A stretch of 64,000 nt of DNA, from positions 5,184,001 to 5,248,000 of the forward strand of contig OZ255842.1 in assembly GCA_965277805.1 (NCBI GenBank). The letters are read 5' to 3'. Made by a program: the position numbers and the translations under genes. The notes below the pieces were generated by a model, which searched no databases, had not been told where the DNA came from, and saw only the letters and a list, made by a program, of their open reading frames with translations. Below, piece after piece: positions 48,079 through 54,726 of the stretch. Positions within the stretch are counted from its first letter, which is position 1, and the number at the start of each line of letters is the position of its first letter. The stretch is from Candidatus Lustribacter sp. (GTDB lineage: Bacteria > Vulcanimicrobiota > Vulcanimicrobiia > Vulcanimicrobiales > Vulcanimicrobiaceae).

Positions 48079-49119
48079 GTGATTTTGCACTTCGACCTCG
48101 ATGCGTTCTATGCGTCGGTCGCCCAGCGTGACGATCCGAGTCTGCGCGGCATTCCGCTCGCGATCTCGGGGTCGAGCCGCCGCGCGGTGGTGCTCACCGC
48201 GTCGTACGAAGCGCGGCCGTTCGGCGTGCGTTCCGCGATGCCGCTCTACCGTGCGCTCGAACTGTGCCCGCAGCTCACGGTGGTGCGCCCCGAGTTCCCC
48301 CGTTACCGGGAAGCCTCCGACCGCGTCTTCGCGATCTTCGAAGACGGCTCGACGGCGGTCGAGGGTCTCTCGCTCGACGAGGCGTTCGTCGCGCTCGCGG
48401 ATTCCTCGCTCGAAGCCGCGGTCGCGTTTGCCGAACGCGTGCGCGAGCGCGTGCGCAACGAGGTCGGCCTCACGTGCAGCGCCGGCGTCGCGACGGTGAA
48501 GATGGTTGCGAAGATCGCTTCCGATGCGAACAAGCCCGACGGCCTCACGGTCGTTCCCCCGGGCACCGAGCGGGAGTTTCTCGCGCCGCTGCGCGTCGGC
48601 GCGCTGTGGGGCATCGGCCCGAAGACCTTGCCGCGCGTCGAAGCGGCGGGCGTGCGCACGATCGGCGACGTGGCCGCACTCGACGATGCGGCGTGTTACC
48701 GCATCTTCGGACGCGGCGGCACGTTCTATCGCGATCTTGCCAACGGGATCGACGACCGGGTCGTCGATCCCGTCCGCGAACGCAAGTCGATCTCGAGCGA
48801 AGAAACCTTCGAGTACGACGTGCGCGACGAAGCACGCATCCTCGCGCTCCTGCGCGAGCAGTCCGAAGAACTGAGCGAGGGCCTGAAGAAACGCGACATG
48901 CGCGCGCAGACCGTCGGCATCAAGATCAAACGCAGCGACTTCACCGTTACCGGCAAGCAGACGACGCTCACCGTGCCGACCAACGACGCCGACACGATCC
49001 GCGCCGCCGCCGAATGGTGCTGGAACCGGTCCGGCCTCAAAGGCGTCCCGATCCGACTCCTTGGCACGCGCGTCGCATCGCTCACGATCGGCGAAGAACG
49101 CGAGATGCGGCTGTTCTGA
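48079..49119 (+). CDS. dinB: DNA polymerase IV
   Basis: HFDLDAFYASV, SYEARPFGVRSAMP, SLDEAF and KPDG. Confidence 0.95.
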   Translation: MILHFDLDAFYASVAQRDDPSLRGIPLAISGSSRRAVVLTASYEARPFGVRSAMPLYRALELCPQLTVVRPEFPRYREASDRVFAIFEDGSTAVEGLSLDEAFVALADSSLEAAVAFAERVRERVRNEVGLTCSAGVATVKMVAKIASDANKPDGLTVVPPGTEREFLAPLRVGALWGIGPKTLPRVEAAGVRTIGDVAALDDAACYRIFGRGGTFYRDLANGIDDRVVDPVRERKSISSEETFEYDVRDEARILALLREQSEELSEGLKKRDMRAQTVGIKIKRSDFTVTGKQTTLTVPTNDADTIRAAAEWCWNRSGLKGVPIRLLGTRVASLTIGEEREMRLF

Positions 49120-51784
49120 TAGCGGGGCCATGTTCGCGCAGGCGTTGCTGCAGTGTTTCCAATGAGCCGGGCCTTGCCAATAAGTAGCCTTGACCCAGCC
49201 GGCAACCATGGTCTAAAAGCCAGCGCAACTGCTCTTCGGTTTCGATGCCTTCCGCGAGCGTCGTGAGGCCGAAACGGTTCGTTAGCTGCAGCAACAGTTC
49301 CGTAATGGCGCCGTCGTGTTCGTCGTGAGGTAGCCCGATCACGAACGAGCGGTCGATCTTTATGACGTCTACGATGAGCTGCTTCAGATACGATAGTGAT
49401 GAATGCCCGGTGCCGAAATCGTCAATCGCGACGGATAAGCCCCACTTCCGAAGCAGGCTAATCGTGTGCATTGCTCCGTCAATGTTCTGCATCGCGGTCG
49501 TTTCCGTCATTTCGACACCCAAATGTGCTGCGAGTCCCGGTGCCGCACGCAGTGCCTCGTTCAAGTCCGCGATAAACGTGAAATCGTCGAGCGTCTGCGC
49601 CGCGACGTTGAAATATACACGAAAACCACTCGGGAGTACGACACCCCCGGTGAAATCACGTATGAGCCGCTGGAGTACCCACCGAGTCAAAGGATTGATC
49701 AATCCGTTACGCTCGGCGGTTGGAATGAATTCTGCCGGCAAGAGCCGGCCCCGCTCCGGATGATCCCAGCGAACCAAGGCTTCGGCGCCGGTAACCGTCC
49801 GCGTTGCTAAGTCGAACGTCGGCTGATACACGAGCGCGAGCTGATCACCAGCGATGGCGTCGGCGAGCTCCACAAGGCGCACGCGCGATTCTTCCAAGAT
49901 CGTTTCCATCGAATGGTCGAAGGAGACGGTCGTCGAGCCATTGCGGGCCTTCGCGACACTGAGTGCCACGTCGGCCCGGCGCATCAGTTCCTCGGGAGTC
50001 GTCCCGTCTTCGGGAAAGCTCGCAGAGCCGATCGATGCTCCGACTTTGAGCATGCGCGTCCCTTCGCGATCGCCCGTGTGAAACGGCGTATGAAACTGTT
50101 CGGCATATTTTTCAAGCGCGCTTGCGGTCGAAGCCGGGGTTTCTACACCGGATAGGAGGACTCCGAATTCGTCGCCATTCATGCGCGCGACGAGATCGTT
50201 TGCATTGACGGCTGCAAGAGTCATGGCGATCTCCACCAGGACTTCGTCGCCGAGCATGTGTCCATGACGTTCATTGATTTGGCGAAATGCGTCGAGGTTG
50301 ATGAATGCCAGCGTGAACCGGTTCTTGCGATTTAGCTCGTTGCGGATAGCATTTCTAAATTGTGCCCGATTGTGAAGTCCCGTAAGCGCATCGTGCTCGA
50401 TCTGAAACTGAATGCGTTCGAACTGCAGTGCCTCGGAAAATCGCGTCGCAAAGAATGAGGCGACGACGTCGATGTATGCTTTGTCGTCTTCGGCGAACGG
50501 CCGATCCGTCATCGGCTCAGGGGAACCGAAACTGAGGAAATACGTCTTGCGGCCGATCGTTACCGTCGTTCCGATATAGCTCTGCCAGCCGGCTTCACTC
50601 CAGGCCTTTCCGTCGCCGTTCATGACCGTCAGATCGTCCCAGGCGGTCGTACGGGTTTCGGTTAGTAGAAGGGCGCTCATCGTGTTTTTCAGTGCGAACG
50701 TCGCGCCTGGAAAGATCGAGTCCATGAAACGCTGCGTATGCGGTTCGGATGCACTCCACGACGTTGCGTCAACGATGACTTGTTGATCGTCAAGGTGTGA
50801 AAGGCAGCCGAACATCGCTTTGCCCGGTCGAATTGCAATCGTTGCGGTCTGTAAGATCGCATCGAACGCGAGTGCTGAGGGCCCCCCCTTCGACGCAATA
50901 GCCCAAATCGCCCGAATCCGGTCTGCACGCAACGATGCCTCGTGGGCAAGCTGCTTGGAGGCCAATTCTGCGCCGTGGAGCTCGATACGTGCGTCTATGA
51001 GCGCGCGCATAGCGGACCACAAGACGAACGAGGCTCCAAACAAGAGCAAGACTCGCCCGACGTAGTATGACCCGCTATAGCGATGCCCCCCCGCCAGAAA
51101 CAACGTGAACTCAAACGTGATGGCGAGCAGCGAAAATGCCAGCGAGCGTTCGATCGTCGTCGGGCCCGCGATTCCGACGGCAAGCCATGTGGCGAGGCCG
51201 AGCAGGAGCACGGTGGCCGGTCCCACTCCGGTCGACATGAGGCGGGCGACCGATGCGTGCGAGGCTAGCGCCGGTAGACGGTCGACCCAGACAAAGGCGG
51301 TGGCAACTGCCAAGGCAACCACCGCAGTCGCGATGCTGGTCGCAGCCACGGTAAAACGCTTCGAAGGATGCCCGGCATCATCGCGCCGGCGAAATACGAC
51401 ATAGGAGAGGGCCCCGGCGCTCGCGACCACGTGCCAAAAAACGTAAAGCCAGATTCCCGTTTGCTCTGAAACGTCCAGCATTGGTGCATTTTCCGGCATC
51501 AACGGCAGTGTTGCCATCGCCAGAAGTAAGATTATCGCGCACGCACCGAACGAGAGGCCGAGCACGAACGTCGAACGCTTGCCGGACGCATAGCGCCAAG
51601 TCGAAAGCAGGACGAAAGCCGTTGCAGCGTCGCCGACTACCGCCATTGCGTAAGCGATGGGCGCCAGACCGGCTAAACGAAGGATCGGAGTGTTCGGAGA
51701 AACCGCGCCGGCGACGGCGAACGCGACGATGCACGCCGCCAATAGAAGGCTGTGGCGGCTGTTTACCGCCAGCTTAAAAAACAC
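49082..51784 (-). CDS. Membrane (MASE4-like) GAF-like GGDEF-EAL protein, probable c-di-GMP phosphodiesterase
   Basis: Multi-TM N-terminus with WLYVFWH, degenerate NGDEF, intact EALVRW, DDFGTG, KIDRSF and EGIET. Confidence 0.88.
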   Translation of the reverse strand: MFFKLAVNSRHSLLLAACIVAFAVAGAVSPNTPILRLAGLAPIAYAMAVVGDAATAFVLLSTWRYASGKRSTFVLGLSFGACAIILLLAMATLPLMPENAPMLDVSEQTGIWLYVFWHVVASAGALSYVVFRRRDDAGHPSKRFTVAATSIATAVVALAVATAFVWVDRLPALASHASVARLMSTGVGPATVLLLGLATWLAVGIAGPTTIERSLAFSLLAITFEFTLFLAGGHRYSGSYYVGRVLLLFGASFVLWSAMRALIDARIELHGAELASKQLAHEASLRADRIRAIWAIASKGGPSALAFDAILQTATIAIRPGKAMFGCLSHLDDQQVIVDATSWSASEPHTQRFMDSIFPGATFALKNTMSALLLTETRTTAWDDLTVMNGDGKAWSEAGWQSYIGTTVTIGRKTYFLSFGSPEPMTDRPFAEDDKAYIDVVASFFATRFSEALQFERIQFQIEHDALTGLHNRAQFRNAIRNELNRKNRFTLAFINLDAFRQINERHGHMLGDEVLVEIAMTLAAVNANDLVARMNGDEFGVLLSGVETPASTASALEKYAEQFHTPFHTGDREGTRMLKVGASIGSASFPEDGTTPEELMRRADVALSVAKARNGSTTVSFDHSMETILEESRVRLVELADAIAGDQLALVYQPTFDLATRTVTGAEALVRWDHPERGRLLPAEFIPTAERNGLINPLTRWVLQRLIRDFTGGVVLPSGFRVYFNVAAQTLDDFTFIADLNEALRAAPGLAAHLGVEMTETTAMQNIDGAMHTISLLRKWGLSVAIDDFGTGHSSLSYLKQLIVDVIKIDRSFVIGLPHDEHDGAITELLLQLTNRFGLTTLAEGIETEEQLRWLLDHGCRLGQGYLLARPGSLETLQQRLREHGPAIRTAASRVLRRS

Positions 51785-51925: not shown

Positions 51926-53044
51926 CTACAGGCCCCAGGGCCACGGGAAGCCGATCGTCAGCGCGCCTTCGAGGGTGGTGGCGCCGTTGAACGTGTGCTT
52001 GTTCTCGATCAGCAGCCGCGCGTGACGGCCGAGTTGCGTGGCGGCGTAGATTACGACATCGCGCGTCGCCGTCGGCGTCGCCGCGGAGTCATACCGCGTG
52101 CCGAGATAGGCATGATTGCCGAGGGCATAGCGGATGCGCGCGAAGCCGCCGCTCGAACCGAACGCCGTTCCGAAACCGTCGGCATCCGCATCGTGGCCCC
52201 ACCACTGCTCGGTGAGCATGCTCCAATGCGCGCGATGGAGATCGAGTCCCACCGCATCGCGCCGGTAGCCGTCGAGAAACGCGCCGGTGCCGCTCGGGAA
52301 GATCTCGCGCGAGCCCTCCATGGCATCGCCGCTAAGGGTCGCCCAATCGGTGACCGGCGTGCGCACGAACAAGCCGATTTCGGGCCGGCCGGCGCGCGTG
52401 TTGATCCCGGTGTTGATCGGTGCGCCGCCGTATGCTGCGCCTTTGAATTCGCCGACCGCGAAGGTACCGTCGATCACGGTGCTGCCTGCGTGTTGCTCGA
52501 CCTCGACACCTAGGCGCGGTTGCGCGAGCGTGAGATCGTTGAGCCCGACGTGTGAGCCTTCGTAGCCGTAAGTGGCCAAGTCGTCGAGTCGTTGACCCGG
52601 TGAGTGAATCAGCGGTAATTCGTAGAGGCCGGTGCGGATCAACGTTTTGGAATGCTGCAGATACGTTGCCGCGTAGGCGAGATAGGCACCCGACGGTCCG
52701 CCCTGCGCGCCGAGGTTGTAGTGCAGAAAGAGGCTGATGCGGCCGACGTCGGCGTTGGAAAGGAGCACGCCGCCCGGCACCAACGGGCGCGCACCCGGAG
52801 CCGGATCGCGATCGTCTTCGAGCTGGTAGCGGAACGCAATCCCCGTCGTGCCGTGTTTACGAATCGGCAGTTGATAGCCGTGGTCGCGAAACGCGTTGCC
52901 GAACGCGTTGAGTTCGGGCAGCACGCTGTGGCAGGCTTCGCACTTCATCTGATAGCGTTGCGCGAAGAGTGGAATCGCCGCTGCGGGCTGCGGTGCGCAT
53001 ACCGCGAACAACACGAGCGCTGCGAGCAGAAGTCTACTGAACAA
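51926..53044 (-). CDS. Cyc2-like monoheme cytochrome c - porin fusion
   Basis: Signal peptide, then AIPLFAQRY-x3-CEACH-x3-PEL-x3-G-x2-F-x3-GY, followed by about 300 aa with beta-strand-like alternation. Confidence 0.72.
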   Translation of the reverse strand: MFSRLLLAALVLFAVCAPQPAAAIPLFAQRYQMKCEACHSVLPELNAFGNAFRDHGYQLPIRKHGTTGIAFRYQLEDDRDPAPGARPLVPGGVLLSNADVGRISLFLHYNLGAQGGPSGAYLAYAATYLQHSKTLIRTGLYELPLIHSPGQRLDDLATYGYEGSHVGLNDLTLAQPRLGVEVEQHAGSTVIDGTFAVGEFKGAAYGGAPINTGINTRAGRPEIGLFVRTPVTDWATLSGDAMEGSREIFPSGTGAFLDGYRRDAVGLDLHRAHWSMLTEQWWGHDADADGFGTAFGSSGGFARIRYALGNHAYLGTRYDSAATPTATRDVVIYAATQLGRHARLLIENKHTFNGATTLEGALTIGFPWPWGL

Positions 53045-53468
53045 CGATTTCGCCCCGCATCGGATGGCCGTAGTGAAAGAAACAACCGAACAAATACGTA
53101 CCGGGCTGGTCGGCCGTAAACACCGGCGACGCCGCGCCGGCTTGCAGCGTGCCGCTGCTCCAGCCGGCAGAGAGCGCCGAACCCGACGCGGTCAGCGCCG
53201 AGCCGTCGAACGGTGATGCGGCTGGAAACGTCGAGCCGGCGATCGACGTCGCGGTGTGCGCGAACGAATCGGTGTTGACGAACTGTACGTGCGTTCCGAC
53301 AGCGACCGTCAGCACGTCGGGAGAATAGCCGTTCATGAACGACGTCAGGTTAACGGAAATTGTCTGCGCGTTTGCAGCGCCGGCGCCGCTGCCGGCTGAC
53401 GGCGCACCGAAGGTGCAACCGCTCAATGCAACGACGAGGACGAGTGCCGAAAGCCGGTGCGCGTTCAC
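53034..53468 (-). CDS. Cupredoxin (type-1 copper) lipoprotein
   Basis: Lipobox LSGC; HTATS ... CFFHYGHPM (H, C-x2-H-x4-M). Confidence 0.88.
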   Translation of the reverse strand: MNAHRLSALVLVVALSGCTFGAPSAGSGAGAANAQTISVNLTSFMNGYSPDVLTVAVGTHVQFVNTDSFAHTATSIAGSTFPAASPFDGSALTASGSALSAGWSSGTLQAGAASPVFTADQPGTYLFGCFFHYGHPMRGEIVVQ

Positions 53469-53563
53469 GCCGCCATGATAAAGTCGTTCGCTTGAAAAAG
53501 GACTGAACGCGAGCACGCGCTGCGTTCAGGCATCGTTCAACCAAGCATTGTAGGCTCGGTTGC

Positions 53564-54178
53564 ATGAAACGTTTAGGACTTCTCGCAGCATGTGCGGGGC
53601 TTTCAGTCGTGGTTGCGGCATGCGGCGGCGGCAGCGGCGGTAGCGGCGCCTCCACTGCGCTCACGACCCCGATCCCAACCGCGACGCCTGCATCGCAAAC
53701 GACGGCGACCCCGCAACAAATCGAGATGGCGCTGCCGGGCGGTACCGGCATCGGTACGGAAACCGATCCGACATTCGGCGCGATCGCCGGCTACACGCAG
53801 CAAACGTACTCGCAAGTTCTGGCGTTCGTGCCGGGTGCGCAAATCATGATCGTCAACGGTCAAGCCGCATCGAGCGCGACGCCGCACACGCTCAACGTTC
53901 TTTCGCAAACTTCGTTTCCGGCGAATCCGACGTTGACGACGACCGCCGCCGGTGGATCGACGATCGCCGCCGGGTTCCAAACCGGCGTCGTTGCCGCGGG
54001 AACCACGGTCGGGCCGTTCACATTGACGGCCGGCCTCTACTATATCGGGTGCGGCTTCCACTATCTCTCGAACGGCATGCGAACGGTGCTTGACGTTGCG
54101 GTGGCGGCGACGCCCGGCCCGCAAGCGACGCCGGTGCCGACGCAAGCGGTCCTGCCGAACAACCCCTACGGCTACTGA
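53564..54178 (+). CDS. Cupredoxin-like (type-1 copper) lipoprotein
   Basis: Lipobox VAAC; PHTLN ... CGFHYLSNGM (H, C-x2-H-x5-M). Confidence 0.8.
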   Translation: MKRLGLLAACAGLSVVVAACGGGSGGSGASTALTTPIPTATPASQTTATPQQIEMALPGGTGIGTETDPTFGAIAGYTQQTYSQVLAFVPGAQIMIVNGQAASSATPHTLNVLSQTSFPANPTLTTTAAGGSTIAAGFQTGVVAAGTTVGPFTLTAGLYYIGCGFHYLSNGMRTVLDVAVAATPGPQATPVPTQAVLPNNPYGY

Positions 54179-54726
54179 TGCGCCGGCTCGCAAAGTTCGC
54201 GCTGCTCGTCGCGTTCCTCGGCACGCTCGCTGCGCCCGCAGCGAGCGCTGCGGCGGGACGCGCGGTCGGTGACATTCCCCTGGTCGATCAGTCCGGCGTG
54301 CCGTTTCACTTGAGCGAACTCGTCGGGCGTCCGGCGGCGATCACGTTCTTTGCTACGCGCTGCCAAGATACATGCCCGATCGTCAACGCGGTGTTTGCGC
54401 GCCTGTCGCGCGCGTCGCTGCACGCGCGGCTGGTGACGATCTCGCTCGATCCCGGCTACGACACGCCGTTCGTCATCGCGAATTACGCCCGTGCGCTGCA
54501 AGCACGCACGCCCGCGTGGCACTTCGTCACCGGCAAACCGGCCGACGTCGCGAGCGTGCTCGCGGCCTTCGGCGTCGTGCTCGAGAAGGGTTCCGACGGC
54601 ATTCCGGATGCGCACAGCGACATGATCTACATTCTCGACCATCGGGGCCAGCTCGCGAACACGGTTCCGCTCTCGACGCATTCGTTCGCCGATCTCCGGA
54701 GCGCGTTGACGAAGCCTTCGCTCTAG
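54178..54726 (+). CDS. SCO family copper chaperone
   Basis: CQDTCP (CxxxC), ISLDPGYDT and conserved His (AHSD). Confidence 0.9.
   Translation: MRRLAKFALLVAFLGTLAAPAASAAAGRAVGDIPLVDQSGVPFHLSELVGRPAAITFFATRCQDTCPIVNAVFARLSRASLHARLVTISLDPGYDTPFVIANYARALQARTPAWHFVTGKPADVASVLAAFGVVLEKGSDGIPDAHSDMIYILDHRGQLANTVPLSTHSFADLRSALTKPSL

Follow-up and report, generated by a model that had tools for sequence, protein, structure and literature searches.

A Cyc2-like cytochrome-porin gene coupled to a lipoprotein cupredoxin gene in Candidatus Lustribacter: a candidate electron-uptake module

The four genes and their products

A stretch of 64,000 nucleotides from Candidatus Lustribacter sp. (contig OZ255842.1 of assembly GCA_965277805.1, positions 5,184,001 to 5,248,000 of the forward strand; the whole stretch is hereafter called the window) was analyzed for a cluster of four genes encoding a Cyc2-like monohaem cytochrome-porin, two lipoprotein cupredoxins (CupA and CupB), and an SCO1/SenC-type protein. 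A first-pass annotation, made from the sequence alone, had placed four open reading frames (ORFs) at 51926-54726 and had proposed that they form a module for metal oxidation or electron uptake. An ORF check recovered all four at the coordinates it gave (Table 1), and the 372-residue protein with its signal peptide, its single CxxCH, and the quoted N-terminal context agreed exactly with the sequence. The overlap claimed between the porin gene and a cupredoxin gene amounted to 11 nucleotides, the stop codon of cupA lying that far inside the porin gene. The second cupredoxin lipoprotein gene and sco, described as divergent, were present on the opposite strand, where they overlap by 1 nucleotide; ~95 nucleotides separate the divergent cupA and cupB.

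Table 1. Positions of the genes, protein regions, and candidate operator of the module in the window
Feature	Coordinates	Strand	Basis
Cyc2-like monohaem cytochrome-porin gene, 372 residues, FAQRY subfamily	51926..53044	-	TTG-start ORF; at least 512 homologues
Signal peptide, residues 1-23, cleavage probably after AAA	52976..53044	-	by inspection; hydrophobic stretch aligned in 38 sequences
Cytochrome domain, residues 24-67	52844..52975	-	residues invariant in 38 sequences; model confidence low
Porin barrel, residues 68-366, 16 long strands, then 6-residue tail PWPWGL	51947..52843	-	AlphaFold2, OprP match, Foldseek
cupA, lipoprotein type-1 copper cupredoxin, 144 residues from GTG 53468	53034..53468	-	Pfam; ORF open to 53516
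Palindrome TGAACGC-N11-GCGTTCA, candidate operator	53504..53528		in ~95-nucleotide divergent promoter region
cupB, second lipoprotein cupredoxin, 204 residues	53564..54178	+	32% identity to CupA; conserved ligands
sco, SCO1/SenC copper chaperone or thiol-disulfide protein, signal peptide, CQDTC and downstream His	54178..54726	+	PF02630, 1e-17

The N terminus of the cytochrome-porin reads MFSRLLLAALVLFAVCAPQPAAA followed by IPLFAQRYQMKCEACHSVLPELNAFGNAFRDHGY; past MFSRLLLAALVLFAVCAPQPAAA the chain runs IPLFAQRY-QMK-CEACH-SVL-PEL-NAFGNAFRDHGY. By inspection, residues 1-23 are hydrophobic and end in AAA, as in a signal peptide. C35-E-A-C38-H39 is the sole CxxCH, and a haem would be covalently attached there. 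C35, C38, and H39 were invariant in an alignment of 38 sequences (36 homologues and two paralogues from the same genome), together with A23, P25, F27, P43, L45, F48, G49, F52, G56, and Y57. P43 and L45 make up a PXL motif four residues past the CXXCH (H39-SVL-P43-E-L45). Translation from the TTG codon at 53044 yields this full-length protein, like 117 of 120 homologues, and its 372 residues lie above the FeGenie length filter of at least 365. The deposited gene call for the porin comprises 340 residues and begins MKCEACH, thus leaving out both signal peptide and Cyc2-like motif; at this length it falls under the FeGenie limit. Neither Pfam nor NCBIfam assigned the porin to a family, and a sequence search of the PDB gave no match at an expectation value (E) of up to 10.

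The remainder of the chain had been called β-barrel-like, and structure prediction bore this out. The AlphaFold2 model, built with an alignment of homologues, had a mean predicted local distance difference test (pLDDT) score of 73.6 and contained 16 long strands between residues 69 and 366. Foldseek returned 233 matches to it at E<=0.001, those listed being outer-membrane barrels throughout. In an independent all-against-all structure search, the best solved match of the barrel was OprP (2o4v; Z 21.9, root-mean-square deviation 3.0, 276 residues), and the predicted fold is thus of the 16-strand OprO/OprP-like type. The related clusters in the ESM Atlas were unnamed; the nearest one with a Pfam family carried Porin_O_P in 20% of its members.

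CupA is most plausibly translated from GTG 53468 within an ORF that spans 53034-53516. It exceeded the Pfam cut-offs for Copper-bind (31 bits versus 21.2) and Cupredoxin_1 (30.5 versus 27). Nothing in NCBIfam rose above its cut-off, the plastocyanin model reaching 26 bits versus 87.85, and the best solved relatives were plastocyanins, matched weakly (E 0.004). A lipobox (LSGC) is followed by a Gly/Ala/Ser tether of ~18 residues. The lipobox cysteine C18 and the residues H71, C129, H132, and M137 were invariant in 42 orthologues, and the spacing C-x2-H-x4-M was found in 71 of 79.

CupB had no Pfam match but is, as judged by sequence comparison, a paralogue of CupA (32% identity, E 6e-8). It carries a lipobox (VAAC) and a long Gly/Ser/Thr/Pro tether; C20 of the lipobox, H108, C163, H166, and M172 were invariant in 28 orthologues, in which the length of the His-Met loop varied. 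A model of its domain (residues 84-180; block pLDDT 68-92) matched only cupredoxins, namely plastocyanin, auracyanin, pseudoazurin, and amicyanin, all weakly (best E 1.7e-3). Both proteins thus possess the His, Cys, His, and Met ligands of a type-1 copper site. The plastocyanin loop that the first-pass annotation had ascribed to both was present in CupA (C-x2-H-x4-M) and not in CupB, which has C-x2-H-x5-M. In the C-terminal 25 residues, CupB orthologues share ATPGPQATP, followed by a Gly-rich tail that ends in GY or, in some, in CxGPYC.

The SCO protein matched PF02630 at 64.8 bits (1e-17; cut-off 22.8), and CxxxC with a distal His was found in 66 of 66 orthologues. Elsewhere in the same genome (locus L090, 7048-8304, plus strand), a 418-residue protein combining a CusF-like copper-binding part with SCO1/SenC is encoded beside genes for a caa3-type oxidase. 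Since this SCO-CusF protein already belongs to the caa3 oxidase locus, the SCO of the window is an extra copy; it probably serves the cupredoxins.

Relation to Cyc2 and to other electron-transfer systems

According to its published description, Cyc2 combines a signal peptide and a single CXXCH, which the motif AXPXFAR[Q/K][T/Y] precedes and PXL follows, with a 16-strand porin of the OprO/OprP-like type (PMC8406198, Keffer et al. 2021; this and the other papers given by PMC number are cited from those parts of their text that were available). The window protein resembles Cyc2 of A. ferrooxidans, Mariprofundus ferrooxydans PV-1, and Ca. Mariimomonas in its signal peptide, its single N-terminal CxxCH, the PxL four residues later, the continuation NxFGxxFxxxGY, and the predicted 16-strand OprP-like barrel, and its full-length profile homology is to proteins with the canonical motif. 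It differs from them in carrying FAQRY in place of FAR[Q/K][T/Y], in being short (372 residues, whereas most Cyc2 proteins have at least 400), in that the last strand is followed by a terminal PWPxxL and the chain does not end in an aromatic residue, and in having a dedicated cupredoxin gene in its operon. Seven of the nine positions of AIPLFAQRY fit the published motif, and the spacing to the CxxCH equals that in canonical-motif proteins.

With a family profile, the number of cluster representatives detected was 3424 at E<=1e-3, falling to 820 at the stricter 1e-10. Among the best 150 matches, 110 had a CxxCH, 16 of them with the strict Cyc2 motif, and the PXL motif was present in 92 of the 110 haem-bearing representatives. 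The residue following FA varied, the counts among these best 150 being 19 for FAQRY, 18 for FAHRY, 12 for FARKY, and 8 for FARRY. Comparison by hhalign with 17 strict-motif proteins, which were taken from the hits of the family profile itself, gave a probability of 100% and E 4e-46 over 353 columns, covering the haem domain as well as the barrel. The relationship to Cyc2 claimed for the protein thus stood as full-length homology to strict-motif proteins, whereas the motif AXPXFAR[Q/K][T/Y] itself is absent. Sequences without PXFAR[Q/K][T/Y] were dropped from the published Cyc2 tree (PMC8406198), and the FAQRY clade would consequently be filtered out of it.

Distant family members bore the names of metagenome-assembled genomes from Acidobacteriota, Thermoanaerobaculia, and Nitrospirota. 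Some of them (among P0203, P0237, P0144, and P0158) have extra C-terminal cytochrome c domains and are 652 and 600 residues long. Two entries of 1035-1043 residues, with a methyl-accepting chemotaxis protein in front and the C-terminal half Cyc2-like, probably arose from the merging of gene calls and were not used. The window porin had no matches in plasmids. The canonical-motif protein P0258 matched replicons of Ralstonia, Paraburkholderia, Caballeronia, and Methylocystis with only its N-terminal 40-70 residues, a weak link to genera that contain Cyc2 homologues according to PMC8406198.

The A. ferrooxidans rus operon (cyc2-cyc1-orf-coxBACD-rus) is similar in that an outer-membrane protein of the Cyc2 type is encoded with a cupredoxin taken to be its electron acceptor (PMC10654088). 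The window locus differs from it in several ways: it is without cyc1, cox genes, and an AcoP-like gene and is therefore not an operon of the rus type; its cupredoxins are lipoproteins with plastocyanin-like loops, whereas rusticyanin is soluble; an SCO gene belongs to the set; and the porin gene follows immediately on the cupredoxin gene and overlaps it. The phosphate-selective porins OprP and OprO share the barrel fold, OprP being the best structural match, but OprP has no haem domain, and the PDB search revealed no similarity at the sequence level. CupA shares the C-x2-H-x4-M spacing with plastocyanin- and auracyanin-type cupredoxins and has its best sequence matches among plastocyanins, and the CupB model matches members of this group, too. 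The two proteins differ from the group in having a lipobox with a long tether, in their weak family scores, and, for CupB, in a His-Met loop of greater length and a C-terminal tail that is conserved and rich in Pro and Gly. Auracyanin is itself membrane-tethered. In MtoAB, MtrCAB, and PioAB, an outer-membrane barrel for electron passage is encoded with its redox partner, as is proposed here for the window. Those systems, however, run separate deca- or multihaem proteins through a larger barrel, whereas the window protein has one fused haem site and a copper protein as its proposed partner.

Conservation of the cupA-porin pair, its hosts, and its regulators

A scan of one genome per species gave 226 stretches with relatives; 80 loci were kept, and all 80 were examined. 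Nearly all of the names attached to homologues and related loci were Eremiobacterota (Vulcanimicrobiota, Baltobacteraceae, Velthaea, and others). Conservation of the neighbourhood, which the first-pass annotation had named as a check on its proposal, was confirmed: cupA adjoined the porin gene in 79 of the 80 loci, the exception (L046) being a 4-kb contig, and an SCO gene lay near in 67. In all 79 loci, cupA was on the strand of the porin gene and upstream of it, with an extrapolated gap of -50 to +34 nucleotides in 77. Matches to cupB were found in 41 of the 80 loci at E 1e-4, cross-matches to cupA included, and a separate cupB gene in 31 loci at E 1e-10.

The usual order in relatives was tetratricopeptide repeat (TPR) protein, cupB, sco, cupA, porin, response regulator, histidine kinase. 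A regulator was found in 46 loci and a kinase in 35, counts that rest on crude gene calls for the neighbours, since the porin itself was recovered in only 55 loci. Copies on the opposite strand, as in the window, were seen for six SCO genes and one cupB gene. Two loci from another family of the same taxonomic order, L088 and L089, both had the arrangement regulator, kinase, TPR, cupA, porin; SCO and cupB were not found within 11 kb around each. In L087, from a class-level relative (37% identity), only cupA and the porin gene were kept, again with an 11-nucleotide overlap, in surroundings that all differed (DUF1800, DUF1501, EamA, and ABC transporter genes). Because it alone persists in L087, the cupA-porin pair is regarded as the conserved core.

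A porin orthologue (E<=1e-60) was detected in 82 of 201 genomes sampled across the phylum. Of these 82, 78 belong to the window's own family, which contributed 113 genomes to the sample (own genome excluded), and other families had almost none. For cupA (E<=1e-15) the figure was 77 of 151 genomes sampled from the family, a count that includes six genomes flagged as unpublished (G204, G210, G213, G223, G260, and G283), which enter it by presence only. Among the matches listed in both genome searches, all 31 porin-bearing genomes had cupA adjoining, and 7 porin-less genomes were all without cupA; the porin-negative genome G018 gave a weak partial cupA match only. Four other genomes of the window's genus were all without cupA; the porin search covered one of these four and found no porin there either. 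An in-frame TAG in the porin matches of G055 and G151 was simply the stop codon, read through in the match, and no sign of a broken gene.

The tightness of this coupling bears on the idea that no dedicated conduit exists. The protein would then be mainly a solute porin, its haem would have a sensing or structural role, the cupredoxin would serve another periplasmic partner, and adjacency would reflect shared ancestry or co-regulation. The barrel does resemble general and phosphate porins, and the genome encodes two further cytochrome-porins (32% and 29% identity, motifs FAHRF and FSHQY), beside neither of which a cupredoxin was found. But the stop/start overlap of cupA and the porin gene was kept across 37-82% identity while every other neighbour changed, and the co-occurrence among genomes listed in both searches also argues against it; we consider this explanation very improbable. 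The two paralogues, of 393 and 373 residues, lie at L002 1426-2607 (minus strand) and L003 1471-2592 (plus strand) and have a C-terminal aromatic residue; at L003, the stop codon of the paralogue overlaps the start codon of a YceI-like gene that comes next.

The regulators that accompany the genes in relatives invoke another possibility, namely that the module serves to take up, detoxify, or allocate copper. The metal would enter through the haem porin, which would also reduce Cu(II) or oxidize Cu(I), and the lipoproteins and SCO would bind copper or pass it to cuproenzymes. This is the main rival of an electron conduit. Copper proteins or copper chaperones make up three of the four products. 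In relatives, the last genes of the operon encode an OmpR-type regulator and a kinase, for which the best NCBIfam models were RppA/RppB and the heavy-metal families TIGR01387/TIGR01386; in 29 of the 36 loci in which regulator and porin gene were both called, the regulator starts 3-58 nucleotides past the porin gene. The regulator and kinase scores were, however, far under the family cut-offs (202.8 versus 279.2 and 109.5 versus 292.55). Judging from its sequence, the kinase (311 residues) has ~30 residues between two membrane helices and no CusS-like periplasmic sensor domain. A CusS-like role as copper sensor was rejected for it because it has almost no periplasmic loop. The complete type-1 site of His, Cys, His, and Met was invariant in all 42 CupA and 28 CupB sequences, so the cupredoxins look like electron carriers and not like chaperones, and no His/Met-rich copper-binding stretch was visible in them. 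Moreover, the core of cupA and porin persists without SCO or a two-component system in L087, and in the window's own genome the regulator pair sits 4 Mb away. Taken together, a role in copper handling appears unlikely, if less so than the other alternatives.

The distant regulator pair is found at ~1.18 Mb of the same genome (L084), where a TPR protein, a response regulator, and a short histidine kinase lie together without the four-gene module. The regulator is 54% identical to the operon-linked regulator of relatives. As this trio stands alone there, the module has become separated from its usual regulators, by relocation or by re-acquisition.

The genes flanking the module in the window encode, according to Pfam, a MASE4-GGDEF-EAL protein and an aldo/keto reductase, and homologues of both were absent from all 80 related loci. 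The gene for the MASE4-GGDEF-EAL protein (900 residues; 49082-51784, minus strand) follows the porin gene on its strand after 141 nucleotides, at the position where relatives carry the two-component system. The palindrome between cupA and cupB has perfect 7-bp arms flanked by TTGAA and TTCAA and occurred once in the window and in none of 100 shuffles. Among the 85 loci searched, the copy of this locus was the only one found, and the candidate operator is therefore without support from conservation. A third copy of GCGTTCA lies at 53461-53467.

Proposed route of electrons and its meaning for the Eremiobacterota

The host had been described as apparently of Terrabacteria type. This was corrected to a member of the Eremiobacterota with BamA and LpxC. 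Its genome (one contig, 5,533,281 bases, 95% complete, 5.9% contamination) encodes Omp85/BamA (94 bits) and LpxC (291 bits), and hence the host has an outer membrane. LolA was not found in it with the Pfam model. A CcsA/CcmF-type cytochrome c assembly protein and two genes for haem-copper oxidase subunit I (COX1) are encoded as well, and together with BamA and LpxC they make an outer membrane and periplasmic haem attachment plausible. One of the oxidase loci is caa3-like, its subunit II having a cytochrome c domain; the oxidase genes lie away from the module.

On the basis of the architecture of the module, and by analogy with A. ferrooxidans, in which Cyc2 hands electrons to the cupredoxin rusticyanin (PMC10654088), the following route may be proposed. 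A soluble reductant, most probably Fe(II), would enter the pore of the porin and reduce the haem, which would pass the electron to CupA. This protein would sit in the periplasm on a flexible lipid tether, and its translation would be coupled to that of the porin on a shared message. From CupA, perhaps via CupB, the electron would move toward a haem-copper oxidase, of which the genome encodes two, one of them caa3-type. SCO would supply or maintain the copper of the cupredoxins. We give about an even chance to the proposal that electrons from Fe(II), or from some other reductant outside the cell, move through the haem porin and then by way of tethered type-1 copper proteins to a haem-copper oxidase. 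The preference for Fe(II) is in line with the finding that Cyc2 proteins from several clades oxidized Fe(II) when expressed in Escherichia coli and that in PMC8406198 and PMC13647500 no substrate of Cyc2 other than Fe(II) is shown. A complex prediction for the mature porin with the CupA domain gave a score of 0.00, which is evidence neither for nor against binding.

The same parts could also work in reverse, electrons leaving the respiratory chain through the cupredoxins and the haem for Fe(III) complexes, humic substances, or reactive oxygen species. The architecture is symmetrical as to direction, and nothing that was computed fixes it. According to their record titles, related genomes come from peat, palsa, fen, tundra, and other soils, and peat, palsa, fen, and soil are habitats rich in humics and iron. 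Type-1 copper proteins, however, generally have high potentials, which fit the acceptance of electrons better than their donation to Fe(III) or humics. The Cyc2 proteins characterized in PMC8406198 and PMC13647500 were, in addition, all Fe(II) oxidases. We therefore think outward transfer improbable.

Several observations weigh against the uptake of electrons from Fe(II) through the porin. AIPLFAQRY departs from the strict motif by having Q for R and R for Q/K, and this is no peculiarity of the window, FAQRY standing in place of FAR[Q/K][T/Y] in 117 of 120 close homologues. The strict-motif proteins used for comparison came, as mentioned, from the profile's own hits. No conserved sixth haem ligand stood out in the alignment of 38 sequences. 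Residues 17-67, the haem domain, had pLDDT values below 50 in the AlphaFold2 model, which is expected because this domain was modelled without haem. Nearly all loci come from one bacterial family, and part of the synteny is therefore shared descent. The regulators of relatives resemble heavy-metal families, as described above. Finally, the only RuBisCO-family match in the host genome was a single, weak one (69 bits), so iron-based autotrophy is not indicated for it. The interpretation as an electron conduit, put forward by the first-pass annotation, is thus upheld by the architecture and the conserved coupling and is not upheld by the strict Cyc2 motif.

FeGenie matches to Cyc2 have been reported for metagenome-assembled genomes of Eremiobacterota (PMC8357290) and again for Eremiobacterota in a study that predicted Baltobacteraceae to be iron oxidizers (PMC13594681); in both, the protein matched is unspecified in the available text. 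Cyc2 matches in the phylum were thus already known, as was the link between Cyc2 and rusticyanin in Acidithiobacillus. The available main text of both papers, supplements outside its scope, mentions neither the cupredoxins nor the operon. A search for literature on Eremiobacter* with cupredoxin found none, and a search on Cyc2 with cupredoxin, gene neighbourhood, or plastocyanin, supplements again outside its scope, found nothing on the arrangement seen in the window.

The role of Eremiobacterota in iron cycling has so far rested on automated Cyc2 matches in these two metagenome surveys. The locus makes the idea testable, as it specifies a haem porin together with a candidate first acceptor of its electrons, a candidate copper loader, and, in relatives, a pair of regulators. 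It also points to two blind spots: a strict Cyc2 motif filter leaves out the FAQRY clade, and a shortened gene call, as in the annotation of this very genome, puts the porin under the FeGenie length limit. If the cupredoxin is indeed the direct partner of the porin, the principle of Cyc2 and rusticyanin in Acidithiobacillus would extend to a distant phylum and to a different type of cupredoxin. More tentatively, a lipid-tethered blue-copper protein and a one-haem porin may constitute a minimal electron-uptake wire in which copper replaces all periplasmic c-type cytochromes. Such a wire might give about half of the sampled Baltobacteraceae-type Eremiobacterota the ability to oxidize Fe(II) in acid peat and soil, within a clade that published Cyc2 trees would have missed because of FAQRY.

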